Positions 15,354 to 29,813 of a stretch of 64,000 nt of DNA are shown piece after piece. Source of the stretch: Promethearchaeota archaeon (lineage in GTDB: Archaea; Asgardarchaeota; Lokiarchaeia; Sigyniarchaeales; SOKP01); assembly GCA_019057795.1 (NCBI GenBank), contig JAHLWS010000005.1, forward strand, positions 1-64,000, in the 5' to 3' direction. Position numbers and translations under genes: made by a program. A model generated the notes under the pieces. That model worked only from the letters and a program-made list of their open reading frames with translations, had not been told where the DNA came from and did not search any database. The first letter of the stretch is position 1. Every line of letters begins with the position of its first letter.

Positions 15354-16223
15354 ATGTTACTCAAAGAAGTACCATACTTCTTAATTTGCCCTAAACATAC
15401 GACACGACATAAAAAGGATATCTTCAAGTCAATTTATCATTCACTTTATGACAAGATTGATTCTGTTGTATTACCTGAAGGACATTTTCTAGTTCAAAGT
15501 TATGGTAAAATTTTGGATTCAATTGTAATAGAATTAGATGATGAATCCGATTATAATTTCCTTAAAGCTTTAGGTCCATTTACGACATGGACTTTAAATC
15601 ATTTGGAAGATTATACCATTGGAAAGAATATAATGCAGGATGGATTGAGAGTTGGAACGATTTCGATTTTCGTCCTTAGAGTTTATAGATTACCTAAAAA
15701 TATTTTAATAAAACGGCCTCCTCAACAGAGCGTCTCTAATCAATTTTTTAATTGGGATGTTGAAGATGATGAAGTTTTTGATTTTAAAAATCCAGTTGTG
15801 CCTGAAGAAGAATTCAACGAAATCTTGTCTTCGATCAAATATATTTATTCCTTATACATAGCCATGAAATCTGCAAAAGATGAAAATTTTAAAAACCAAA
15901 TCACTTTCGAAGATTTATGGCAAAAAATTCAATCGAAATTTGAACCTAATATGATAATTTATACTTTGAAGCAAAAAAAAGCCAATGAAATCATCGAAAT
16001 TAACGACTCTGGAATAATAGTCAAAACTGAGAAAGGGACTGAATTAGTAGAAATTGAAATGATAAGAAAAGCATGGGAAAATTTAGTAAAAGATGGTGTT
16101 CTCTACAGAGATGAACATGAGAAATCAACTTATCGAAGCTCGTTTATTTTAGGACTACTATCACAATTTAATTTCATAGAAACAAGCTTGAAAGGTAGAA
16201 TATGTATAAAACTGAAGGTTTAG
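15354..16223 (+). CDS. DUF1802-like (PUA/ASCH-related) domain plus a C-terminal domain of the type seen on restriction proteins
   Basis: VLRVYRLP...PVVPEEEF resembles DUF1802; recalled from memory. Confidence 0.45.
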   Translation: MLLKEVPYFLICPKHTTRHKKDIFKSIYHSLYDKIDSVVLPEGHFLVQSYGKILDSIVIELDDESDYNFLKALGPFTTWTLNHLEDYTIGKNIMQDGLRVGTISIFVLRVYRLPKNILIKRPPQQSVSNQFFNWDVEDDEVFDFKNPVVPEEEFNEILSSIKYIYSLYIAMKSAKDENFKNQITFEDLWQKIQSKFEPNMIIYTLKQKKANEIIEINDSGIIVKTEKGTELVEIEMIRKAWENLVKDGVLYRDEHEKSTYRSSFILGLLSQFNFIETSLKGRICIKLKV

Positions 16224-16264: not shown

Positions 16265-16561
16265 GTGAAAATTATATCTCAGCATAGGTGGTCAAAAGAA
16301 GATCATATAATCGCACTTTATTTATATCGATTTGGTATGGAAAGCTTGGGTGACCCTGTAAAACTATTATCTTTATTAGAAATACCTGTATCCTCAATGA
16401 CAATGAAATTTGCAAATTTAGTTTCAGCAATATATGGTAAAGATGTTGGAAAATTTGGAACTAGTGAATTGGATAAAGAAGTAGTTAAAGAATACCTAAA
16501 TTTGCCACAAGAAGATTATCGAAAACAAGTTTTTGATATCATTTATAAGAAAATGGAATAG
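16265..16561 (+). CDS. Stand-alone domain resembling the N-terminus of HNH restriction endonucleases
   Basis: WSKEDHIIALYLY...SSMTMKFANL...SELDKEV pattern; no HNH domain follows. Confidence 0.45.
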   Translation: MKIISQHRWSKEDHIIALYLYRFGMESLGDPVKLLSLLEIPVSSMTMKFANLVSAIYGKDVGKFGTSELDKEVVKEYLNLPQEDYRKQVFDIIYKKME

Positions 16562-16570
16562 TTTTACTAT

Positions 16571-17620
16571 TCATTCTTGTATCATAGCCTTTTTGAATTC
16601 AGCAATATGAGCATTATTCGCATAAAAGCGTTCTAAAGATTGTTTCATTTCAATAGCTATAGCTTTTATTACTGGGACGGGTACTGAATTAGCTAATTGT
16701 TTATATGCTTGTGTCATTGAAACAGGGAATATAAATGAATCGGGAAATCCTTGCAGTCGCGCCCATTCCCGTTCCGTCATTTTTCTTATCCCCTCGTTAT
16801 TCTTCTTTTTAAGTGGATCATCTCCTGGCCTCCACGCATCGTATTTTATGGTGTCTTTAACCAAATTTCTCTCTTTTCCCATTCCGCCGCAGACGATCGT
16901 ATTGGCCACTTCTTTCCGCCCTATGACCTGGTAACCGAATCCGTGTCCTTTTGCTTTATGACGTGTCCTATGATTTTTTAGCGTGTTCAGATATTGTTGT
17001 GATAAAAAATATTTTGTATTAACATCTTTTTCTAATATATTACCAATTCTAACATTTCTATTTTCGCCTTCAGGAAATTTAAATTTAATATCCTCCCTAA
17101 ATCCAACAATGTATATTCTTTTTCTCTTTTGAGGTAATCTAAAAAGACTGGCATCTAATATTGTGTAATAAATTGTATATCCTAATTCATTCCTTAAAAT
17201 ATCTTCAATAGTGTTAAAAGTTCTGCTTTTATCGTGATTTTTCAAATGTTTAACATTTTCAAGTAGAAAACATAAGGGTTTTTTTTCCCTTATGATATCT
17301 CTAATATAGAAAAAAAGGTTCCCTCTTTCGTCGTTAAAACCCTCCCTATATCCAGCTATTGAGAATGCCTGACACGGAAACCCAGCCAATAAAATATCAA
17401 AATCGGGAATATCTTTGGTAATTACTTCTTTTATATCAGCCTTTGGATTTTCTCCAAAGTTTAATTTGTAAGTTAGACAGCAAAATTCATCTATTTCACA
17501 TGAAAACACAAATTTTATCTGATCTCTGAATGCCTGTTCGAATCCTAATCGAATACCGCCGATACCCGCAAACAGATCAATTGCTTTATATATATACATT
17601 AAATTTATGTCAAAATCCAT
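16571..17620 (-). CDS. dcm: C5-cytosine DNA methyltransferase, M.HpaII-like (copy 1)
   Basis: FAGIGG, GFPCQ, ENV, QxRxR, REWARLQGF; TRD ANTIVCGGMGKERNLV resembles M.HpaII. Confidence 0.95.
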   Translation of the reverse strand: MDFDINLMYIYKAIDLFAGIGGIRLGFEQAFRDQIKFVFSCEIDEFCCLTYKLNFGENPKADIKEVITKDIPDFDILLAGFPCQAFSIAGYREGFNDERGNLFFYIRDIIREKKPLCFLLENVKHLKNHDKSRTFNTIEDILRNELGYTIYYTILDASLFRLPQKRKRIYIVGFREDIKFKFPEGENRNVRIGNILEKDVNTKYFLSQQYLNTLKNHRTRHKAKGHGFGYQVIGRKEVANTIVCGGMGKERNLVKDTIKYDAWRPGDDPLKKKNNEGIRKMTEREWARLQGFPDSFIFPVSMTQAYKQLANSVPVPVIKAIAIEMKQSLERFYANNAHIAEFKKAMIQE

Positions 17621-17728
17621 TATAAATATATGTTACTATATTCTATCTACATACATATATTTAAATTACAGGGAATTAAGAAGACGAAGATTGAGATTCA
17701 TATGGAAAGAACTAGAAAAGAAAGCGTA

Positions 17729-18952
17729 TTATTTTAATTTCCAAAAATCTCTTCCATCCCTATTAATATGAAGAATTTCTTGCTTTCGTACTAATTCACT
17801 TAGTTTAACCTTTAAGAATCTTACATCAAGCATTTCCTTCATTCTTAATTTTGAGACTAAATCATCTAAATCTTGCCATTTATTAGATAGAGTATTAATT
17901 ATATTTTCTTTAGTTATATCTATTATATGAATCTGTCTGGTTTTATCTAATCGTTCTATATCGGGCAATTTTGATTTTAGGGACGCGATTGGGACACTTT
18001 TTTCATATCCTAAAAATATTTTCTGTTTTTCACTTTTTTTTTTTAAAACTACTTTTTTCTTTGAAAGATCTTCTTCTATAATTTCTTTAATTAATTGTTT
18101 GAAATAGTTTTCCCATTTTGTTTTATGTGGTTTTGGCCATTTATTTCCATTTTCAGTTCCAAGTTGTTTTAATTTATTTCGTAATATCTGGGAGTGATTA
18201 GTAGTCCAACTTCCTTTTTTGATCTCATTATTTAATACTTCAATCAATTTAGGAATTTCATTTCTGTGATTAATTAATATTTCTTGTTTATATGATGTCA
18301 TAAAAGTATAGTGAGAATAGGCTACGGGTTTTACTTTTCCTATTTTAGTTATAACTTCATCTAGTATAAGTTCCTTTGGAATAAATTGTGCTAACCTTAA
18401 AAAATTTCTAAAACCTTCAGGGCTATAACCAATTCTTCCATTTGTCGAATATTTCTCGCTTTTTCTTATACCCATCCATTTTATTACTCTATCACCTAGT
18501 AAAGGAATTAAATTTCCAACCATTCTCAAAATTAATCTATTCTCGCTACTAATATCATGTTTAACATCAGTATACCTCTCAGAATCTTTCAAACGTCTTT
18601 TAATAAAACTATGTAAAATTTTTCCAATTGTATGAATTAATGAAGGAGGTTTTTTTCCAGATGTAACTTTTTTTCTACTTGGATCTTCTGGTTCATAAAG
18701 GGCTATACCATCTTTTAACATGTAATCCTTGATTTCCCTTCGAATTTTCAAAGCTGCACTACCTGAAAGAAGAACAAACGCATCTTTAGCCCACTTCTCT
18801 TTTGAGGAATAGATCAATTGCTCTGCTAATGTACTCAGTTCTATTGTAAGATCAATATCAGAAATACCTAAAATTGTCTCCTCATTAGTCATATCAGCTT
18901 CAAAGATCTCATCTTCATTCTTTATTTTATCTTCATCAATAATACCTGACAC
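17729..18952 (-). CDS. Hypothetical protein with probable C-terminal winged helix
   Basis: 407 aa; sits in the operon between the GHKL gene and dcm. Confidence 0.65.
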   Translation of the reverse strand: MSGIIDEDKIKNEDEIFEADMTNEETILGISDIDLTIELSTLAEQLIYSSKEKWAKDAFVLLSGSAALKIRREIKDYMLKDGIALYEPEDPSRKKVTSGKKPPSLIHTIGKILHSFIKRRLKDSERYTDVKHDISSENRLILRMVGNLIPLLGDRVIKWMGIRKSEKYSTNGRIGYSPEGFRNFLRLAQFIPKELILDEVITKIGKVKPVAYSHYTFMTSYKQEILINHRNEIPKLIEVLNNEIKKGSWTTNHSQILRNKLKQLGTENGNKWPKPHKTKWENYFKQLIKEIIEEDLSKKKVVLKKKSEKQKIFLGYEKSVPIASLKSKLPDIERLDKTRQIHIIDITKENIINTLSNKWQDLDDLVSKLRMKEMLDVRFLKVKLSELVRKQEILHINRDGRDFWKLK

Positions 18953-18964
18953 TTAATACCACCA

Positions 18965-21556
18965 TTATCTCTTCAAAGTAAATTTCTTATTTAATTCGTG
19001 AAATTTAGCTTCAAAATCCCACCAATTCATATTTAAATATTTTATGCGATCTTCAAAGCAGTAAAATAATAATATACCCAAACCTTTATACCAAATTTCT
19101 TTATCCAAACCTTCGGGTGTGTCAAGACGTTCAAAGAGTGGATGCAGTACATTAATGTATATTGTTTTTTCCTCTGGTTTAAAATAAGCTATGTCTTTTT
19201 CATCAGGATCAGGTATATATTTAATTTTAAGTGTTTTTCTTTCTTTCTCAGGTTTATCCTCTAGAATAATACTCTTTATTAATAATTCTTCTAATTCAGG
19301 AAATGATTTTTCATGAGGTTCTTCAAAATTCCATTTAGCTGAAATTGTGTACTCCCTTTTTCTTAAATCACTATAATCTATTTCTTTTACTGGAAACTTT
19401 AAATAACCTTCCTCATTGATATTAAGAAGATACTCATAATCTTTTCTTGTTTCACTTTCCGCTATTAAACTTACTCTTAATTTCCCTTTCATCTCACTGA
19501 CATAAGGATTTCTAATATGAATAATAGGACATTTATCAATTGTATTAATTTGTATTGATTTAAGGCTTTTTTCAACATAAATTGGAGTTTTAATTGTCTC
19601 GATAAGTTCATTATCTTTTTTGACATTTAATGCATATTCATATTTTCCCCTTTTTTCTTTTTTTTTAATTTCAGTATCAAAAATTTGACTGCTTAATTTT
19701 GTATATGATTTTAATTTTGAATTCTGAATAATTTCCCATTCAGTATCAGTTTCATGTTTTCTCTTAAATTCTAATTCTATTGGAAAGGGAACTCCAGAGA
19801 AGTTGCATTTAACATTTATTCGAAATGGTTGTCCTCTTAAGACTAATTTTGGATCCACACCTTCTATTTTCATTCTTTCCAGTATTTTATTAAAGTTAAA
19901 AAATTTTGTCTTGATATCAATACGTTGATTTTTTATATCTTTTAAAATTATATTGATTTTATATTTGCCTCTCTTGTGTTGATATTTTGGTTTTTTTGAT
20001 AGATTTATTCCTGGATATTTGATTTCCTTCTCTTCTAAGGGTTTGAGTTTATCAACTTCTATTTCCTTTAATTCATCAAATACTTCGCAAAGCAGTTTAA
20101 CTTCATTTAACTCTGTTTCTGATACATTTTTTATGCTTGTAGTTATAATAAAGTCAGAGATTTGGTCATGTATAAATTCTGGTTCATATTCGATCTTCTT
20201 TATATATCGCTCTATAGTTGGAGGTTCTTTTATGTCACTTTCAGTATTATCAGAATACTCTTCATCTAATTTTCCCTCGTCAGCTACAATGTCGACGATA
20301 TCTTTTAAGCCTACTTCCTCTAAGAAATTTAATATATCTTTAGTTAATGTGTCTTTCCCTCCTAATGTTTTAAGTCCTCCTATTTCCTGACTAAAAGCAA
20401 TTTTTAAGTTAATACAATGTGTTCTTATTGTATCTCTTAAAGTAGGTTCAATTTGATGAAAACCAGCATGAGTAGATTTTTCAAACTTTTTCAAAGCTGT
20501 CGAATTAATTTCTCCAATGATTTGATAATCATTCCTCCCTAGAGATATTTCATTTGGAAATATCTTTACTACTCTGTCATTTACGAGTATTCTAATACCG
20601 TCAAAAATATCCTTTGTATGACATTTATCACGTAATTCAAATAAATCATTCGTTTTCACAATACCAATTCTAAAGTTATCAACAGTAAAATTATTACTAC
20701 TTTTTCCCCTCCCAGTCCCCCATGTTTCAGGATTCTTCCTGATAATCGGCTTTAAGATACCCTTCTCTATTAATTCAGGATTATCAAATTTCTCAAAAAT
20801 AATTTCTTCTTGTATCCCTTCATTTTTAATTGATAAACAAATTTGTATTTCAGATCTATTAATAAATTTATAATATCTTGAATAAAGAACATTCCTAATA
20901 GCTGAAGAAAAATCAGAAATTACAAGTTCTTCAAGTCGATCACTGATATATTTCTTTAGTTTACCTTTATCTTCTTTAGAAAATAATTTAAAAATCCAAA
21001 CAGAACCATAGTTATTTTCAAGTTCATCCCCATTTGGGATATCCCATTTTTTATATACATCATCAGATTCTTCGTAAGCAAAGGGATTTGGATCTAAATA
21101 ATTCCCTATTTTATCAGTTACCCATGTGATTATCGAATATCCAGGATTTTCTGATTTATCTCTTGGATTTGAAAAAATTTTAATTTCCTTACAAAAAGCA
21201 AGCCAGGTTTTCCACCCCTGTCCAAAAGCCCCCCCTGATCTCCCCGTCATATCCTTAGTTTCTCCTCCAAACTTAAAAATACCTTCAATCCATTCTCGAT
21301 CAGTTATTCCATGGGTCCCTAATTGATAAAAAATGATCTGATTTTCTAAAAAGTCCAACACAATTTTAAGCTTAACATCATTATCATTAAAGTCTCTTCC
21401 AATTTCTATATCATCAAGAAAAGCATCAAAGAAATTTTGGAATTTTTCATCAACTAAAATCTCTGGTAATGGTTGATCATATCCTTTAGCAATATTATTT
21501 GCCTGTTTTGAAATGTTAATCTTAAATTTGCTTCTATGTGAAGAAATATCTGTCAC
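18965..21556 (-). CDS. MORC/GHKL-type ATPase-like protein with Ig/CARDB-like beta domains
   Basis: EKFQNFFDA (N box), LGTHGI, GAFGQGWK (G2 box); central beta-rich repeats (IKNVSETELNEV...LKPLEEKEI); C-terminal IYINVLHP. Confidence 0.65.
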   Translation of the reverse strand: MTDISSHRSKFKINISKQANNIAKGYDQPLPEILVDEKFQNFFDAFLDDIEIGRDFNDNDVKLKIVLDFLENQIIFYQLGTHGITDREWIEGIFKFGGETKDMTGRSGGAFGQGWKTWLAFCKEIKIFSNPRDKSENPGYSIITWVTDKIGNYLDPNPFAYEESDDVYKKWDIPNGDELENNYGSVWIFKLFSKEDKGKLKKYISDRLEELVISDFSSAIRNVLYSRYYKFINRSEIQICLSIKNEGIQEEIIFEKFDNPELIEKGILKPIIRKNPETWGTGRGKSSNNFTVDNFRIGIVKTNDLFELRDKCHTKDIFDGIRILVNDRVVKIFPNEISLGRNDYQIIGEINSTALKKFEKSTHAGFHQIEPTLRDTIRTHCINLKIAFSQEIGGLKTLGGKDTLTKDILNFLEEVGLKDIVDIVADEGKLDEEYSDNTESDIKEPPTIERYIKKIEYEPEFIHDQISDFIITTSIKNVSETELNEVKLLCEVFDELKEIEVDKLKPLEEKEIKYPGINLSKKPKYQHKRGKYKINIILKDIKNQRIDIKTKFFNFNKILERMKIEGVDPKLVLRGQPFRINVKCNFSGVPFPIELEFKRKHETDTEWEIIQNSKLKSYTKLSSQIFDTEIKKKEKRGKYEYALNVKKDNELIETIKTPIYVEKSLKSIQINTIDKCPIIHIRNPYVSEMKGKLRVSLIAESETRKDYEYLLNINEEGYLKFPVKEIDYSDLRKREYTISAKWNFEEPHEKSFPELEELLIKSIILEDKPEKERKTLKIKYIPDPDEKDIAYFKPEEKTIYINVLHPLFERLDTPEGLDKEIWYKGLGILLFYCFEDRIKYLNMNWWDFEAKFHELNKKFTLKR

Positions 21557-21824
21557 CCATTTTTATTTTCGATTTTAAAATTCTATAATTGAAATTTCTC
21601 ATTTTTTTTTTTAAATTATAATCAAATTTCCTTTTAACTTCTTCTATCGCAGATTTTATACTTTTAATAATTTTGTCTACTTCTTGTTGAGTATATTCAT
21701 AGATTTGGGGATTTGCACAATTTCCTAATATACGAAGTGACTCTAACACTCTTTGCGTACGAGGTGTTACTATTCGGATAAATTTCTCGTGTGGTGTTTC
21801 ATTTTCAATTCTTACTTTTACCAT
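21534..21824 (-). CDS. Small conserved helical protein of R-M/MGE loci
   Basis: ETPHEKFIRIVTPRT...LRILGNCAN...YEYT pattern recalled from mobile/R-M loci. Confidence 0.6.
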   Translation of the reverse strand: MVKVRIENETPHEKFIRIVTPRTQRVLESLRILGNCANPQIYEYTQQEVDKIIKSIKSAIEEVKRKFDYNLKKKMRNFNYRILKSKIKMGDRYFFT

Positions 21825-22246
21825 TATTTTTGTGAATCATATTAAGTGTTGGATTAGGTTTACATTATTAATGTGATCATTAGTATATAAATTTATTGTA
21901 TTAGATAATTATTAATGAGTATCTAATAAGATTTCATCGTATAGATAAATTTATTATATTTCTCTAAATATTATTAATCCTACTTTTTTATATAATAATA
22001 CTAGATCCTTTAGATATTCTTCCCAATATTTCTCTATTAACACAATATAAAAATAAATCTAATAATGTTAAAAAAATCTTAATTAATTTCTCAAACAAAA
22101 TTAACAAGAAAAATATTGATGATTTAAATATAATCATTTATTGAATTTCTAAAATTAAAATTTTTTTCTTTATATACTAAAAAATATGGATTATTTACGG
22201 TCTAATAGAAAAATGTTAATTAGATATTAGTATCCCTTATCACAGA

Positions 22247-23180
22247 ATGAATATATATAAAGCCATAGATCTTTTCGCGGGCATCGGCGGTATTCGTTTA
22301 GGATTCGAACAGGCTTTCAAAGATCAGATAAATTTTGTGTTTTCATGCGAAATAGATGAGTATTGCCGCAAAACATACTTTAACTGGTTTTCCGTGTCAG
22401 GCATTTTCTATAGCAGGATATCGGGAGGGATTTAACGACGAAAGAGGAAATTTGTTTTTCTATATTAGAGATATTATTAGAAAAAAACAACCAATTTCAT
22501 TTTTTTTAGAAAATGTAGATAATTTAATTACACATGATAAAGGTCGTACATTTTCAATAATTAATAATATCCTTGAAAGTGAATTAAAATATTATATCCG
22601 CTATAAGATTTTAAACGCAATGGATTTTGGACTTCCACAGAGAAGAAAAAGAATATTTATAGTAGGATATAAGAAAAATTTAAGGTTTGAATTTCCTAAA
22701 GGCGATAGTGGAAATCCTATGGTTGATGATATTCTAGAAACCAAATTAGTTGATGAAAAATATTATCTTTCTCAACAATTATTAAACACGCTAAAAAATC
22801 ATAGAACACGTCATAAAGCAAAAGGACACGGATTCGGTTACCAGGTCATAGGGCGAAAGGAAGTTGCTAATACGATCGTCTGCGGCGGAATGGGAAAAGA
22901 GAGAAATTTGGTTAAAGATACCATAAAATACGATGGTAAATTAGATGAGTTTTTAAAAATTGTTGAGCTTGTGTTAAACAAAAAACCTCAAAATATCGAC
23001 CTTGAAATGAAAGATCAGTATAGGCTTAAAATGGATGTAATTATGTTAAAATATATCGGTTTGAATAAAAAAGATGTTATAATTCTTTATAACGATTTGA
23101 TCAATTTAGTGAAACAAAGAGAAGAGAGAGCAACAAGTATAAAACGCGAGAAAAAGAAAAAAAATAATAATAAAAATTGA
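22247..23180 (+). pseudogene. dcm: Frameshifted, chimeric C5 methyltransferase (copy 2)
   Basis: Motif I in 22247-22380, then a deletion/frameshift into GFPCQ; lacks motifs IX-X and has an unrelated C-terminus after KDTIKYD. Confidence 0.85.
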
Positions 23181-23327
23181 CACAAATATAAAAACCTTAA
23201 CTTCTACTCTGTTATTGAAAAACAGATAAATTGAATTAATAGAATTTAGCTTAGGTAAGACAAAAGTTTGAACCTTTTTTTTTTATTGAAAATACATAAA
23301 ATAAACAATTAAATCTAAAATCAGAAC

Positions 23328-25384
23328 ATGTTAATAGAAACATTATCAATTGAGAATTATCGCTCCATAAAGAAATTAACCATTAAAATAAAAAATAACT
23401 TTTTACAATTGATTGGAGAAAACAATTCAGGGAAAACAAATGTTTTTAGAGCTATAGAGTTATTCTTTAAAAGTTCTGTTGCTGGAATTACACAAGAAGA
23501 TTTTTTTCAAAAGACCATAAAAAACTCGATTAAAATATCAATAACATTTTTCAATTTAACCGAGTCGGAAAATTCATTTTTTCAAGATTTTTTATGTGAT
23601 AACAAACTAATTATACAAAAATTATATCGATGAGCGAAGAAACTGAAAAAGTTTCATCAGATTTTCTAATAACACGAGATCTTCCAGAAATCCCCCATTT
23701 TGATGGTAGTAAATTTGATAAATGGAGAGAAAATAGCGAAGCAATTATTAATTTTTTTAAGGAATATGATTATGAAGATAATATTAAAAGCGATAGAGGG
23801 ACTATAACTAAAGCAAGTGTAGAAAAAGCTATACCTCAATTTATTAAAGAAAAAGGTAATGAATGTGAAACGAAAAAAAAGGAGTGTAATACAAACCTAA
23901 AATGGAAAGATATTTCTAGCTACTTACCAGAAGTGTTATATATTGAGGCGACAAAAAAAATTTCGGAAGAAGTAAAAACATCTGAAAGAAGTAAATCAAT
24001 TTATAAAAAAATTTTAGAGAAAATAATTTTAAAAAGCATAGAGGACAATTTGGATGATTCAAAAATAATTAAAGAATTTAAAAAAAATCGCAACCAGCTA
24101 GAAACCCTTCTAAAAAAAGGAGAAGATGAAGAAGATAAACGGTTTGAAATAATTAAACAAATTGAAAGTAATTTATTGAAGAATTTAAATCAAAATATTG
24201 CTACAAAAAGCATAGAAATTAAGATTTTTCCCCCAAGATTGCAAGATTTTTTTTCGAATACGGATATAATAATTAATGATGGAATAGAAAGCTCAATAGA
24301 AAATAAAGGCGATGGGTTAAAAAGGTCATTAATTTTTTCTCTTTTTATTACCTATTCAGAATATCTAAAGAATAAAATAAAAGATAAAGGAATTTCAGAA
24401 GATAAACCATTTTTATTTTTAATAGAAGAGCCTGAATTATATTTACATCCCCAAGCACAGAAATCCCTTAGGGATATATTAATTCTAATATCTACTTACG
24501 ATCAAGTGTTTTATAGCACTCATAGTTCTAATTTCATTGATATAAGTAAATATTTATCAATAGGATTAACAATTAAAGAACCGATAGAAACGGGTACTCA
24601 AATAAGTTTTATTGAAAAAAAGTTATTTGAACCACAGATACAAAAAGAATATGAACTTTTAATGAGATTCAATCCTGAAAGAAACGAAATGTTTTTTGCA
24701 AAAAAAGTGGTATTAGTTGAAGGTAATGTGGAGAAAATTGTATTATCTCATGTTGCTGAGTTAATGGGTAAAAATTTTGATAAATTAAATTTCTCATTAA
24801 TAGAATGCGGTGGAAAAACTATGCTATCTTATTTTATCACGGTATTATCCTGTTATTCTAAACCGATTATCGTTATTCATGATATTGATCCGTTAACCCC
24901 TGTACAAGAAAAATCTGCAGATGAATTACGAGAGTTAGGATATGAAAATCGAAAGATTGAGCAAATTCAAGAGAAGAAAAGACGATTTAAGGATAATAAT
25001 AAGATTGATGATCTTATTTCAAAAGAACATAATAAAATTGGCTTAATTACAATAAATCCTAATTTTGAAAAATTAATCGGAATAACACAACACGGAGATA
25101 AAAAAACTCTTAAAGCTTTTAAATTTGCTAAAGATCTTTCAAAAGAAAATATTGACAAAGATTTACAAGAAATAATTGATTTTATTTTAGCTTTTCAAAT
25201 AGATAAAACTCGGCACGAGATTAAAAAATACGAAATTGATTGTATTTCAAACAATGAAGAAAGTCATCTTGAAGAAGAACTATTACCAACAGACGAAACT
25301 GTACATGATAAGCCTAATTTAAATCAGAAACCTAAAGTGAAATATAAAGAACAAGTTAATTTAGATAGTTTTTTTGAAAGTTAG
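23328..25384 (+). CDS. OLD-family ATP-dependent endonuclease (ABC ATPase + TOPRIM), split by a frameshift at about 23620
   Basis: IENYRSI and GENNSGKT in ORF1; KGDG, IEEPELYLHP, STHS, LVEG and DID TOPRIM motifs in ORF2; one extra A in the run at 23617-23621 fuses them. Confidence 0.85.
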
Positions 25385-25538
25385 CGTTAATAACGAATGA
25401 ATGAATTTTACTATAATTTAATTAATGTATATTTTAGATAATATAACTTCTTTTCAATGATTTAAACAAGTATTAGATATAAGTATAAGATAGTAAAATC
25501 TAATTTATTCTTTAATCAATTGACTATTAAAATTAATA

Positions 25539-26228
25539 GTGATTCAAATGGAGAAAAAAAGTGCTAAAGCTAAAATTCTGGAGTTATTTCAAGCGAATGC
25601 TAACAAGTGGATTCCTATAAATGATATTCAAAAGGTTGCTCAAATAAGTGAGTGGGCAAGAACGATTAGATTTCTAAAGGCGGAAGGATGGAAGATAGAA
25701 AAAAAAGGCGGCGGTAAAACTACAGAATATTGCCTTACATCTTTAGAAAAAAAGGAAGGTGTTGTGAGAGGACCTATAAATCCCAGAACCAGAGCAGGAA
25801 TTTTGCGTAGAGATGGTTATCGTTGTGTACACTGCGGAAAAAACCCTGAAGAGGATAATATCAAACTTGAAGTCGATCATATTATTCCTGTTGCATGGGG
25901 TGGAAAAACTGAGCCAAAAAATCTTCAATCATTATGTAGAAAGTGTAATCAAGGTAAGAAGAGCTATTTTTCTGATTTCAACGACGATGATGCTGTTAAA
26001 GATATAATAAAAGCACCATCTGGAACAGAAAAACTCCTACTAATAGGAGCAAAATTAATAGATCGTCCTTTAACTGTAGATTTTATAGGGACATTAGCTG
26101 GAATTCGCGATTGGACTCGCACTATTCGTTCTTTACGCCAAAAAGGTAGAATCAATTACAAATGGGACAGTAAAACCAACACTTACACATTTTTAGAAGT
26201 AAAAAAGAAAGAAAAAGAACGTCAATAG
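25539..26228 (+). CDS. HNH endonuclease flanked by two HTH-like repeats (likely REase partner of dcm)
   Basis: RDGYRCVHCG...LEVDHIIP...GGKT...NLQSLCRKCN; repeated WARTIR/WTRTIR. Confidence 0.85.
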   Translation: MIQMEKKSAKAKILELFQANANKWIPINDIQKVAQISEWARTIRFLKAEGWKIEKKGGGKTTEYCLTSLEKKEGVVRGPINPRTRAGILRRDGYRCVHCGKNPEEDNIKLEVDHIIPVAWGGKTEPKNLQSLCRKCNQGKKSYFSDFNDDDAVKDIIKAPSGTEKLLLIGAKLIDRPLTVDFIGTLAGIRDWTRTIRSLRQKGRINYKWDSKTNTYTFLEVKKKEKERQ

Positions 26229-26261
26229 AAATTATTTTAGAGGATAAACAAAACTTATTAA

Positions 26262-27596
26262 TCAAATTTTTGATGATACTTGCTCATCAATAAATTTATC
26301 TAAACTAATTTCGGTATTAGGTGTAATGAGTAATTTCGATATTATGTTATGAAACTTTCTTTTATCGGAGATATTTAACAACTTCTTTGATATTTGAATT
26401 TGATTTTTATTAATTTTACTAACTATCTTAAAAAGCTCCATTTTTCTCAATAAAAGTTCTATATCGTTAATTCTAAGATAATTCCTGTTAATGAAAGTAT
26501 GAATGGATGAAATAAACTTCTTACCAGTCTTAGGAATGTCTTTTTTCTCGTAAAGCTTTTCCAATAAAACAACAATTTCTTCAAATTCTTCTGAAATTTG
26601 AAGCTTTTTCATAATAATAGGATTTAATAAAGAATTTTTCATTTCTAAAGCTAAACTTTTTATTACGGGTACAGCAACGGAATTTCCGAGTTGTTTATAG
26701 GCTTTGGTCATTGATACAGGAAATTTAAACGAGTCGGGATAACCTTGAAGGCGAGCCCATTCGCGGGGAGTCATTTTTCTTATTCCTTCTTCGTTCCGTA
26801 ATTGAATGTCGTCACCTTCCTCTTTCCAGCAATTTGGTAATATTTTATCATAAACGAGATTTCTTTCTCTTCCCATACCTCCACATACAATAGTATTTGC
26901 TATACCATTGCGAGATTTCACTTCGTATCCGAATCCATTTCCTTTTTCTTCGTGTCGGGCTCGATGTTTTTTTAAACCGCTTAAATATTCGTGAGAGAGG
27001 TAATAAGAGCTTTTAACTTCTTTTTCTAATATATATTCAATCTTTACAGGAGTATTGAGTGGTTTTGGGAATTTAAAAGCAAGATTATTCTTAAATCCGA
27101 TAATAAAAATTCTTTCCCTATTCTGAGGCACACCAAAATCTTTCGCGTTGAGAATTTTTGTATGGATGTTGTAATTCAAATCTTTAGTAAGAACATCTTT
27201 AATTATTTGAAATGTTCTTCCTTTATCGTGATTTCTTAGGTGTTTAACATTTTCTAATAAGAATGCATCGGGTTGTTTTACTCTTAAAATCTCGGCTAAG
27301 TTAAAAAATAAAGTTCCTCTTATGTCGTTGAATCCTCGCTTCTCTCCCGCTATAGAGAATGCTTGACACGGGAAACCGGCAAGCAGAATGTCAAAACTCG
27401 GAATTTCTTTAGGATTTACCTTAGTGATGTCTCCTAGAGGATTTTCACCAAAGTTTTCTTGGTAAGTTTTACACGCGTAAGGATCTATCTCGTTAGCATA
27501 CACGAACTTGATCTTATCTTTAAACACTTGTTCAAAACCTAACCTTATGCCTCCAATCCCGGCAAATAAGTCAACAGCTCGAAAATTTTGGTTCAT
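26262..27596 (-). CDS. dcm: C5-cytosine DNA methyltransferase, M.HpaII-like (copy 3) with C-terminal extension
   Basis: All C5 motifs present; TRD ANTIVCGGMGRERNLV; about 110 aa extra tail. Confidence 0.95.
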   Translation of the reverse strand: MNQNFRAVDLFAGIGGIRLGFEQVFKDKIKFVYANEIDPYACKTYQENFGENPLGDITKVNPKEIPSFDILLAGFPCQAFSIAGEKRGFNDIRGTLFFNLAEILRVKQPDAFLLENVKHLRNHDKGRTFQIIKDVLTKDLNYNIHTKILNAKDFGVPQNRERIFIIGFKNNLAFKFPKPLNTPVKIEYILEKEVKSSYYLSHEYLSGLKKHRARHEEKGNGFGYEVKSRNGIANTIVCGGMGRERNLVYDKILPNCWKEEGDDIQLRNEEGIRKMTPREWARLQGYPDSFKFPVSMTKAYKQLGNSVAVPVIKSLALEMKNSLLNPIIMKKLQISEEFEEIVVLLEKLYEKKDIPKTGKKFISSIHTFINRNYLRINDIELLLRKMELFKIVSKINKNQIQISKKLLNISDKRKFHNIISKLLITPNTEISLDKFIDEQVSSKI

Positions 27597-27894
27597 TTAA
27601 AATTACCTCTTTTTCTGATCTTTTATTGCATGACTATATAAAAGAAAATTCTTAAGAATAGATTAATAAATCTTCGGTTATTAAATTTAAGAGACCGGCA
27701 TAACAGAAATTTACCAATTCATAAAGGTTTTGCTTCGCATTAACTAATTATCGTAAATCAAATTTTTTTAAATTTACTGTTAAAGAATATAATTTATAAT
27801 CAATGCGTAATTGTTACACGTCAGATAAGAGAATTCTTTAAAATGGGTTGTAATTATCTCAATAACAAAAACAAAAACAAAAAAATTCCAAGAA

Positions 27895-28536
27895 TTGATC
27901 CTAAACTGGGCGGATAATAATTTAGTTGAGTATCCGTGGCGAAATAAAAGGAATCCCTATAAAGTATTAATTAGTGAAATTCTCCTTACGCGAACAAAGG
28001 CTAAACAAGTCACTCCAGTATATAATGATTTTATGACAAAATATCCAACAATAAACCATTTCTTGAAAGCAGAATTAATTGATCTGAAAAAAATGTTAAA
28101 ATCCCTTGGTTTATTGTTTAGAGCCGAAATGCTAATAGAGCTTGCCTTTCAACTAAAAAAGGACTTTGATAATAAAATTCCAAACACCTTAGCGGAGTTG
28201 AAAACTCTAAAAGGAATAGGGGATTACGGAGCAAATGCAATATTATGCTTCGGTTTTAATGAGAGAAATCCATTATTAGATGTTAACTTCATCCGCATCT
28301 ATACACGAGTATTCGGTATAGAATCAAAAACAAAAACGCCGAAAACGGATAAATTCTTATGGGAAACTTCGAAAGAATTACTCCCCGATACTAATTACAT
28401 AAACTTCAACTACGGTGTATTAGATATGGGAGGAAATATTTGTTTGAATAGAATCCCAAAATGTACTATCTGCCCGATTAAGAAGTTATGCTTGTATTAT
28501 TCCAAATTCGGAGCGAAACAAGAGATAATAATCTAA
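27895..28536 (+). CDS. HhH-GPD glycosylase, Mig/TDG-like (T:G mismatch) or MutY
   Basis: YPWR, SEILLTRT, LKGIGDY, LLDVN, FCL motif CLNRIPKCTICPIKKLC; divergent from dcm. Confidence 0.85.
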   Translation: MILNWADNNLVEYPWRNKRNPYKVLISEILLTRTKAKQVTPVYNDFMTKYPTINHFLKAELIDLKKMLKSLGLLFRAEMLIELAFQLKKDFDNKIPNTLAELKTLKGIGDYGANAILCFGFNERNPLLDVNFIRIYTRVFGIESKTKTPKTDKFLWETSKELLPDTNYINFNYGVLDMGGNICLNRIPKCTICPIKKLCLYYSKFGAKQEIII

Positions 28537-28841
28537 CTAATAGGCTAAGTGAGTTATTGGTTTTTTATAAGTAATTAAAGTAGGTTTAATTATTAGCTCT
28601 TGTTACGCTCCAAAATGTAAAATATATTGTAAAGATCTTAAAAATCCTAAGTCAAGTAGTCATATAAATTTAAAATTTCACTAAGAAAAATTAAAAACAA
28701 CTGTTTTAATTTTAAATGTATTTAAGACTTATATTCAATTTTAAATTAAAAATAATTGGTTTTAATAATATTTTTATAATAACTATTATAGATTAGAAAA
28801 CGGGAATTTAATTTAAAAATTAAAATTCAGAGATAATTTTA

Positions 28842-29813
28842 ATGCCATTTATTTTTTATAGTAGTGCTGATGAAACCCTCGATAATTTAGTTTTTAGTAA
28901 AAATATTTGGGGAGTTAGGACGAGTCGAGTAAAACCAAGTTTAGAAAATAAACCCAATGAATTTCGACAGGGAGCAATAATAATTTGGTATTCTAGTGAA
29001 AGTGCTTCTTTTATTGGCTAATCAACAATAAAGCATGCTAATTTTTTCCCATCTGAGCACACTAGTGACAATGTCAGTGCTTTTGAATTAGAAGCTACTT
29101 CTAAATTTAAAACAAAATTAAGAAGAACTCCTCAAATTTATAACTTGATTTCAGATTTTAGTCTATTATTTAACAATTATAGAATTATAGATAATGAACT
29201 TTTTAATAAAATTATCTCTATAGCAAAAACACCAGAAATAGAGTCTATAGAACCTATAGAACATTCACATAATTCAATAGTGAATAATTTATTAAATATT
29301 GGAAAATTAATGGGCTATGAGGTTTGGGTGGCCAATGATCTAAAGAACAAAATTATAAATGAAAAAAGGCTAGGAGATCTTTCTGTTGATGACTTAAATC
29401 TTCCTGGGTTTGACAATTCTACATTAAATATTCTAAAAGCGATAGATGTAATTTGGTTACAACAAACATATATTATAGCCGCGTTTGAAGTAGAACATAC
29501 AACCTCGATATATGGTGGGTTGCTACGATTTTCTGATTTGTTTTTATGCCTTCCTAATTTAAAAATAAATGCATATATTGTTGCACCAAATAATAGAAAA
29601 AATGTGGTTGAAAAACAATTAAGTAGAATTACTTTTAAACAGATCTTTAATAATAATATTGCCAGCGTAGTTAACACTATTTATTATTCTTCTTTAAATC
29701 TTGGGGTTGAAATTGTTGAATCTGTATATAAAAGAGGAGGCCATTATAATGCAGAAAACTTTCTTATTCATTGTGTAAATGAAGAGTGGTATGATATCAT
29801 GGATCAGAGTTGA
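28842..29813 (+). pseudogene. EVE-like + PD-(D/E)xK modification-dependent nuclease interrupted by a nonsense codon
   Basis: ATG 28842 is in frame with the 29145 ORF; IWGV...GAIIIWY...FIG* (TAA 29019-29021); C-terminal IDVIW...FEVEHTTSIYGGLLRFSDL. Confidence 0.7.

Follow-up and report, generated by a model that had tools for sequence, protein, structure and literature searches.

This report deals with a pair of adjacent genes in the genome of a Promethearchaeota archaeon, located within a stretch of 64,000 nucleotides (nt) of contig JAHLWS010000005.1 (assembly GCA_019057795.1, positions 1 to 64,000 of the forward strand), hereafter the window. The pair encodes a large protein predicted to be a GHL-type ATPase and a helical partner, and lies within positions 16571-29813, a segment that an earlier note, made from the DNA sequence, had described as one system centred on 5-methylcytosine (5mC). 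The map of open reading frames (ORFs) of this segment placed every gene of that note at its coordinates, and the defect reported for one cytosine methyltransferase gene (dcm2) is real, whereas the gene of an OLD-family nuclease, taken there as intact, is in fact frameshifted. Three of the genes are packed together on the minus strand:

21534-21824, minus strand, 96-amino acid (aa) small protein (P0003), from the ORF
18965-21556, minus strand, 863-aa GHL-type ATPase (P0001), from the ORF, the AlphaFold model and fold matches
17729-18952, minus strand, 407-aa helical partner (P0002), from the ORF

The 96-aa ORF overlaps the start of the 863-aa gene by 23 nt, and a gap of 12 nt separates the latter from the 407-aa gene. 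These three genes make up the tight unit, and a four-gene operon that would include the methyltransferase gene further downstream, dcm1, is not demonstrated. As a T-rich tract and a TATA-like box are present in the 108-nt spacer that separates dcm1 from the 407-aa gene, cotranscription of dcm1 with the module is not required, and dcm1 may simply be a neighbour with its own promoter.

A model of the 863-aa protein was built with AlphaFold2 on the alignment of its family, with a mean predicted local distance difference test (pLDDT) of 67.6. It consists of a confident alpha/beta domain at aa 14-258, beta-sandwiches at aa 450-810 and a helical end at aa 819-861, in such a way that the gene can be divided as follows:

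20783-21517, minus strand, GHKL (Bergerat) ATPase domain, aa 14-258, pLDDT ~80-90, with fold matches in VIA comparisons
20216-20782, minus strand, middle region, aa 259-447, pLDDT <50
19127-20215, minus strand, three immunoglobulin (Ig)-like beta-sandwiches (~aa 448-556, 557-662 and 663-767) and a beta-hairpin to aa 810, from the secondary structure of the model, Foldseek and VIA
18968-19126, minus strand, conserved C-terminal domain, INxLHxLFxRLDxPxGL (aa 801-812 onward) and WWxFE (aa 845-849)

Foldseek searches with the whole model gave only Ig/macroglobulin arrays, and the GHKL match came from an exhaustive VIA structural comparison of aa 7-272 of the model against the PDB. The top match was TRAP1 (6xg6, Z 15.3, root-mean-square deviation 3.0, 183 residues aligned), followed by HtpG (Z 15.0), GRP94 (14.7), ParE/GyrB (~14, ParE 14.0), SMCHD1 (13.7), Topo VI-B (12.5), sacsin (12.2), MutL (12.0), MORC2 (11.5) and MORC3 (10.5). 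TRAP1 was also the sole match to the ATPase domain when the family profile was compared with the PDB (E 0.04), where motifs I, II and III all line up, and the ESM features of the N-terminal half had HATPase_c and HATPase_c_3 clusters as neighbours (score 0.97). These data support that the N-terminus has a GHKL ATPase fold, as predicted by the model, and bear out the description of the protein in the earlier note as GHKL-like with Ig-like domains. The scans of the three core proteins with Pfam, PADLOC, NCBIfam and PHROG models, whole and in pieces and at E up to 10, gave nothing above noise save two weak or local matches, one of P0001 to the NCBIfam sacsin ATP-binding domain (E 0.036) and one of a homologue (P0008) to Tiamat (TmtA) of PADLOC, restricted to the ATPase motif (E 3.3e-5). 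In agreement with the note, the partner matches none of the models of these four libraries.

The note had labelled the 863-aa protein as a MORC, and this label is not supported. Members of MORC are retrieved before other GHKL families when a protein belongs with them, and here the structural comparison ranks the Hsp90-type proteins first, while such sequence signals as there are, all of them weak, concern TRAP1, sacsin and TmtA. Because of this structural ranking and these signals, the protein is best placed, from model and sequence, as a GHL-superfamily ATPase nearest to the Hsp90/sacsin/Tiamat sector, its membership in MORC being unproven. An alignment of the family profile with the MutL of the same genome by hhalign found the right motifs, but aligned only the GHKL part (E 0.48).

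In GHKL ATPases, the Glu of motif I is catalytic and its Asn binds Mg, the Asp of motif II contacts the adenine N6, and motif III binds phosphate. In the 863-aa protein, motif I (ExxxNxxD) corresponds to E37-x3-N41-x2-D44, where E37, N41 and D44 are invariant in all the members that cover the region, and motif III (GxxGxG) corresponds to G109-A-F-G112-Q-G114-WK, which aligns to GQFGVGF of TRAP1 and in which G112 and G114 are invariant. Motif II does not conform to DxGxG, since the family reads Q78-L-G80-T-H-G83 (QxGxxG), with an extra residue between its two Gly and with Q78 aligned to the motif II Asp of TRAP1 and MutL. The replacement pointed out in the earlier note (QLGTHG) is therefore genuine. 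However, it is not a sign of decay: because Q78 and G83 are invariant across members that are 20-30% identical, the alignment identifies the Gln as a conserved trait of the family and not as a lesion. Since it retains the Glu for catalysis and the Asn for Mg binding, the protein is likely to be capable of hydrolysis, and the invariant Gln found where the Asp would contact adenine suggests that the nucleotide pocket is altered rather than dead.

The same motif could be read in another way, namely that loss of the Asp abolishes nucleotide binding and leaves a pseudo-enzyme, whose GHKL shell would serve only as the base of a scaffold or sensor. The presence of Q78 and of the extra residue in all members would fit such a protein, as would the fact that no Pfam GHKL model recognises the domain, but the invariance of the Glu, the Asn, D44 and the GxxGxG loop at 20-30% identity is hard to explain without a nucleotide, and the side chain of Gln could still hydrogen-bond a purine. 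We regard a pseudo-enzyme as quite unlikely.

The array of beta-sandwiches matched C3/alpha-2-macroglobulin MG arrays in Foldseek (E 1e-9), dextranase, GH2, HAP2 D3 and FN3 domains in VIA (Z 10-12) and the Ig domain of dextranase in the profile search (E 5e-4). According to the model the repeats are generic Ig/FN3/macroglobulin-like sandwiches, and the CARDB-like character attributed to them in the note found no Pfam CARDB match. The most conserved part of the whole ATPase family is the C-terminal segment, INxLHxLFxRLDxPxGL followed by WWxFE, with N802, H805, L807, F808, R810 and W846 invariant and helices at 819-861 in the model. Comparisons of this domain with the PDB and Pfam gave nothing beyond a resemblance to PadR at E 0.95.

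This resemblance lies in the motif INVLHPLFERLDxPxGL (aa 801-812, window 19121-19156), which recalls the recognition helix of PadR-type winged helix-turn-helix proteins (xTLYPLLxRLExxGL); it is non-significant, and is a lead for a putative DNA-binding C-terminus of the ATPase. A DQHAxxE endonuclease motif of the MutL type was also considered by eye in this domain and rejected, as neither the spacing nor the conserved positions match.

The middle region contains two conserved stretches, GIRILVNDRVV (aa 320-330) and KSTH (aa 360-363). The first is of interest with respect to MORC, which is defined by a GHKL domain plus an S5 domain with the signature GhXhhpXXRhl (PMC2292703). By eye, and not by profile, GIRILVNDRVV fits this signature except at the polar position, and the R is changed to H in two members. 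The Pfam model of this domain, Morc6_S5 (PF17942), gave no match in 201 genomes, the controls among them, a result that carries no information on the family.

The ATPase is encoded as a single protein in the window, whereas in three relatives (63-70% identical) the GHKL domain has a separate ORF of ~250 aa, with an overlap of 11-29 nt with the one that follows. The cut falls at the domain boundary seen in the model of the fused gene of the window, and could mean that the gene is split in a conserved way or that a frameshift is programmed. The split forms are found at:

L001:7389-10011
L015:75-960
the contig of P0016

In the partner P0002, the N-terminal module at aa 45-129 is conserved and the C-terminal extension at aa 303-407 is specific to the lineage. 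Its homologues were studied in four further loci that carry the ATPase gene, named L001 to L004. The partner of L001 is 64% identical and that of L002 25% identical (E 3e-14), while in L003 and L004 the similarity to P0002 is confined to its N-terminal helical module (~85 aa; the same region in both, with hhalign E 7e-4 and 0.013). The C-terminal part varies, in such a way that the version of the window has an extra tail of ~100 aa and that of L004 has DUF7226/AAA_assoc_C and a 90-aa domain. Clusters of AIPR were the neighbours of P0002 by ESM features, with a score (0.76) that is at chance level, and no AIPR match was found in the partner with PADLOC or Pfam.

A C-terminal domain of ~90 aa (…YRSSFI..LLS…) is common to the DUF1802 protein of the window and two proteins of L004, with 35-42% identity, and would be a small mobile domain linking both islands. 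It is located at:

window 15354-16223 (aa 202-288)
L004:11014-12672 (aa 462-549 of the 552-aa partner)
L004:211-990

The arrangement of the two genes was compared among the window, L001, L002, L003 and L004. In all five, the ATPase gene is followed by the partner gene, with a gap of -11 to +12 nt; the recurrent unit is the ATPase and a translationally coupled partner. Conservation of the neighbourhood, which the earlier note had proposed as a check, is thus confirmed for this pair, but not for the set of four genes, in which the 96-aa gene and dcm1 are not constant. The 96-aa protein has a homologue only in L001, the closest locus (44% identity), and no family match in Pfam, NCBIfam and PHROGs scans; because it recurs only there, and on the opposite strand, its gene is accessory and lies outside the core.

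The surroundings of the pair differ among the loci. L001 belongs to a close relative (27% GC) and shares with the window a dcm gene (70% identical to dcm1), a Mig glycosylase gene (64%) and a 95-aa flanking gene (74%), in a different order and with Mrr between them, the dcm gene being located two genes upstream of the pair. In L003, a Z1/MzaC helicase-like gene is found 29 nt upstream of the ATPase gene (PF10593 E 1e-49; PADLOC MzaC E 8e-42), and a Mig-like glycosylase, 39% identical to that of the window, is encoded near the pair. L004 has HNH, PLD and a TIR-like effector as neighbours. No methylase or glycosylase was found within 9 kb in L002 (66% GC) or within 21 kb in L004, and three of the five loci (L002, L003 and L004) have no dcm next to the pair. 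A link of the pair to cytosine methylation is plausible in some lineages only, and does not define it. The genome of the window (completeness 100%, 87 contigs) gave no match for a Z1 gene.

Two details of these loci are worth recording. At L001:4595-6587, a C5 methyltransferase gene adjoins an Mrr-type gene for methylation-dependent restriction (PADLOC mREase_IV E 2e-18), a potentially conflicting pair. In L003 (L003:1-1308 and L003:4666-7205), the ATPase P0010, a distant member of the family, is preceded by the Z1/MzaC-type gene, and two genes of the glycosylase type then follow side by side, for a Mig-like HhH-GPD protein of 377 aa and an AGOG-like protein of 450 aa.

The family of the ATPase is rare. 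Only nine proteins were found with phmmer among 1.84 billion representatives, and a profile search of 5.8 billion clusters gave five matches. Within the phylum it is present in two of 400 genomes, that of the window and one other from the same order and a different family, while the 41 further genomes of the genus lack it. No member was detected in plasmid, phage and viral collections (tblastn of plasmids and phages, search of viral contigs with P0001), and a search of genome contigs with P0001 gave no relatives. As only two of 400 genomes of the phylum carry it and one homologue (L002) is on a contig of 66% GC, the family looks like a horizontally moving accessory module, with a distribution that fits horizontal spread rather than Asgard ancestry.

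The remaining genes of the segment, and those at its edges, are the following:

16265-16561, plus strand, 98-aa gene with no family match, 74% identical to the 95-aa gene of L001
16571-17620, minus strand, dcm1, intact C5 cytosine methyltransferase, full PF00145, E 1e-92
22220-23180, plus strand, dcm2, frameshifted, the main ORF (22356-23180) covering only profile positions 67-238 of PF00145
23328-25384, plus strand, OLD-family ATPase-TOPRIM nuclease, frameshifted, AAA_15 and OLD TOPRIM
25539-26228, plus strand, HNH endonuclease, PF14279/PF01844, PADLOC REase_II E 1e-10
26262-27596, minus strand, dcm3, intact C5 methyltransferase with a C-terminal extension of ~120 aa, PF00145 E 3.5e-99
27895-28536, plus strand, Mig-type T:G mismatch glycosylase (HhH-GPD), PDB 1KEA E 5e-40, PADLOC PDLC03398 E 7e-42
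29145-29813, last ORF of the span, 222 aa, no Pfam or NCBIfam match

The genes dcm2, OLD and HNH diverge from the minus-strand genes, HNH converges on dcm3, and the glycosylase gene diverges from dcm3. The closest solved relative of the glycosylase is the T:G glycosylase Mig.MthI (1KEA), which agrees with its annotation in the note. For the dcm methyltransferases, called HpaII-like in the note, the best solved relative is M.HhaI. With a C5 methyltransferase, an adjacent endonuclease and a repair gene, dcm3, HNH and Mig have what is expected of a type II restriction-modification (R-M) system with T:G repair. By their sequences, HNH and dcm3 are a probable type II R-M pair, and together with Mig they form, as annotated, an ordinary type II R-M unit with repair of deamination.

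In dcm2, a pseudogene, the motif I piece is at 22220-22435, the frameshift lies after motif I and before motif IV, and the motifs of the C-terminal part are missing. The OLD gene is broken by a frameshift into 23328-23633 (101 aa, with the Walker A piece) and 23630-25384 (584 aa), which could be due to decay or to an assembly error. The genes dcm1 and dcm2 are inverted paralogues with 73% protein identity, and dcm3 is 62% identical to dcm1. Mosaic inverted repeats of dcm1 and dcm2 flank the three-gene module on both sides:

16837-17023 and 22749-22935, first pair of the dcm1/dcm2 inverted repeat, 187 nt, 91%
17468-17600 and 22246-22378, second pair, 133 nt, 86%

Recombination between these repeats could flip the segment; alternatively, they may record gene conversion or the insertion of the module. 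Two other observations concern single genes. Residues 330-444 of dcm3 (26262-26600) form an extension of ~115 aa past the methyltransferase domain, without family match, and the 98-aa gene at 16265-16561 and its counterpart at L001:11406-11693 both flank the module in convergent orientation.

The wider window also holds a type IIG methylase-like gene, PIN, Schlafen/AlbA_2, HerA, DUF1802 and DUF4145. The ATPase and its partner are thus located among R-M and defence genes, in agreement with the note, and the stretch, which belongs to a large defence island of this genome, consists of several independent units and not of one system.

The earlier note had gone further, with a MORC-type ATPase that reads or enforces 5mC with the three Dcm, OLD, HNH and Mig as one supersystem of 13 kb, ancestral or relevant to the MORC silencing of eukaryotes. 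Some observations fit such a proposal: dcm1 is directly downstream of the module and on the same strand, a Mig-type glycosylase, dcm or both are within a few kb of the pair in three of the five loci, the host is an Asgard archaeon, as shown by a ribosomal protein gene of the window with 94% identity to those of 'Promethearchaeota archaeon Loki_b31' and related MAGs, a stretch resembling the S5 signature can be found by eye, and the known neighbours of prokaryotic MORC and paraMORC genes include dcm and vsr (PMC2292703). However, only the pair recurs among the loci, in three of which dcm is missing; dcm2 and OLD are broken; the Z scores of MORC2 and MORC3 are well below the 15.3 of TRAP1; and neither HATPase_c_3 nor any MORC model matched. 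The sparse distribution in the phylum, together with the 66% GC organism, fits horizontal spread and goes against a relevance of the family to the origin of eukaryotic MORC and 5mC silencing. We consider this supersystem very unlikely. A search for literature joining Asgard archaea, defence systems and MORC found no such paper.

A comparison with known systems places the family more precisely. Prokaryotic MORC and paraMORC1-5 are GHKL ATPases of R-M-type operons (PMC2292703), in which the Z1 helicase is their classic partner (PMC2292703); Z1 is also the motor of CglI-type restriction enzymes (PMC5861437). Like the family described here, they have an N-terminal GHKL domain, a sporadic lateral spread and family-specific C-terminal extensions, and they neighbour C5 methylases, T:G repair enzymes, HNH nucleases and Z1 helicases. 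The family differs from them in the QxGxxG of motif II, the insertion of three Ig-like domains, the dedicated helical partner, the lack of a HATPase_c_3 match and its best structural neighbours, which are of the Hsp90 type and not MORC or MutL. The Tiamat group (TmtA, sacsin and Hsp90-like defence ATPases) shares with the family an Hsp90-like GHKL head, variable middle domains and a C-terminal module, as well as being rare in prokaryotes and often beside methylases, helicases and nucleases (10.64898/2026.09.30.754977). Yet DUF3684, TPR-like or PD-(D/E)xK (NOV_C) domains of Tiamat were not found in the family by Pfam scans, with an Ig-like array and an obligate partner instead, and Ig domains occur in no Tiamat-like architecture that the preprint lists (10.64898/2026.09.30.754977). 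Hsp90, HtpG and TRAP1 provide the best structural match of the ATPase domain (Z 15.0-15.3) and the PDB profile match, but the family lacks the Hsp90 middle and C-terminal domains, has the adenine-binding Asp replaced and is a patchy accessory gene in a defence island.

The Mza system of PADLOC is built on a neighbourhood of Z1, AIPR and a MutL-like ATPase, with dcm and a T:G repair gene as typical neighbours. L003 resembles it, as the MzaC/Z1 gene precedes the pair and the GHKL protein would then take the place of the MutL-like ATPase; unlike in Mza, no Z1 helicase gene accompanies the pair in the window, L003 being the only locus with one. None of the family members or partners matched the MzaA, B, D and E models of PADLOC.

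The likeness to chaperones also bears on a role outside defence, in which the pair would serve maintenance or partition, or chromatin organisation, of a mobile element, or would be an Hsp90-like chaperone with an adaptor, and would be found in islands only because the element is. Besides the fold matches to Hsp90, TRAP1, HtpG and GRP94, this role would account for the lack of a recognised effector domain, for the context of L002, which is not defence-like, and for the inverted dcm repeats that flank the module in the window, as expected of a mobile or invertible segment. Against it, no integrase, transposase or replication gene accompanies the pair in any locus, the collections of viruses, phages and plasmids gave no matches, a restriction-type motor (Z1/MzaC) is directly upstream in L003, and the conserved middle and C-terminal domains of Hsp90 are absent. 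Such a role appears to us unlikely, though less so than a pseudo-enzyme.

In our reading, the ATPase and its partner are a defence-type GHL-ATPase module, restriction-like or abortive against viruses, to which we give a probability of about 0.55. The placement of GHL ATPases next to methylases, helicases and nucleases is an established theme of defence (PMC2292703; 10.64898/2026.09.30.754977), and among the restriction-linked ATPase modules the pair probably represents a new branch. By analogy with MutL, Hsp90, MORC and Tiamat, the ATPase would be a dimer joined at its C-terminus that clamps DNA or a foreign protein in a nucleotide-driven manner, with the Ig array as a sensing or spacer arm. 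The partner would be an adaptor that carries a DNA-binding or effector domain and docks through its constant N-terminal module, and the whole assembly would act on foreign DNA or trigger abortive infection. Where present, the neighbouring Dcm may mark self DNA and Mig would repair the deamination of 5mC.

Several observations weigh against this defence-type reading. In neither core protein could a domain of a nuclease or of another effector be recognised, and the model of the partner found no fold match in the PDB (best Z 6.6) or in the ESM Atlas (TM <=0.31). With the Asp of motif II absent, the binding of ATP is itself only predicted, and the transducer with the catalytic Lys/Arg is only putative, as the middle region of the ATPase was modelled at low confidence. 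In L002, the pair is surrounded by housekeeping-type genes (ABC transporter, PAP2, peptidase), without any defence gene in 9 kb. Finally, only four to five independent contexts are available, the window and L001 being close kin, in such a way that the statistics of association are weak.

A more specific version of the defence-type reading, which we put forward tentatively, is that the pair is a self-sufficient and undescribed anti-virus system common to Asgard archaea and bacteria, with a Gln-variant pocket, an Ig arm that would sense a viral component and the partner as the effector end, sometimes coupled to 5mC self-marking or to a Z1 translocase. If so, GHL-ATPase immunity would gain a further branch, next to MORC/paraMORC, Tiamat and Mza.

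No description of the family or of its pairing was found in the searchable literature and libraries, and in kind both stand beside the known R-M-linked GHL ATPase modules. Their value is that of a defence-type module and not of an evolutionary link, as nothing ties the family to the origin of eukaryotic MORC silencing. The architecture is new to these sources, with a predicted GHKL head whose adenine pocket has an invariant Gln, an Ig-like array that is intracellular and a docking module of the partner that is swapped onto different C-terminal domains, and the natural fused and split forms mark a domain boundary for biochemistry. It is becoming apparent that immunity in prokaryotes and eukaryotes repeatedly relies on GHL ATPases such as MORC, paraMORC, Tiamat and the Hsp90-like proteins, few of which have been studied.

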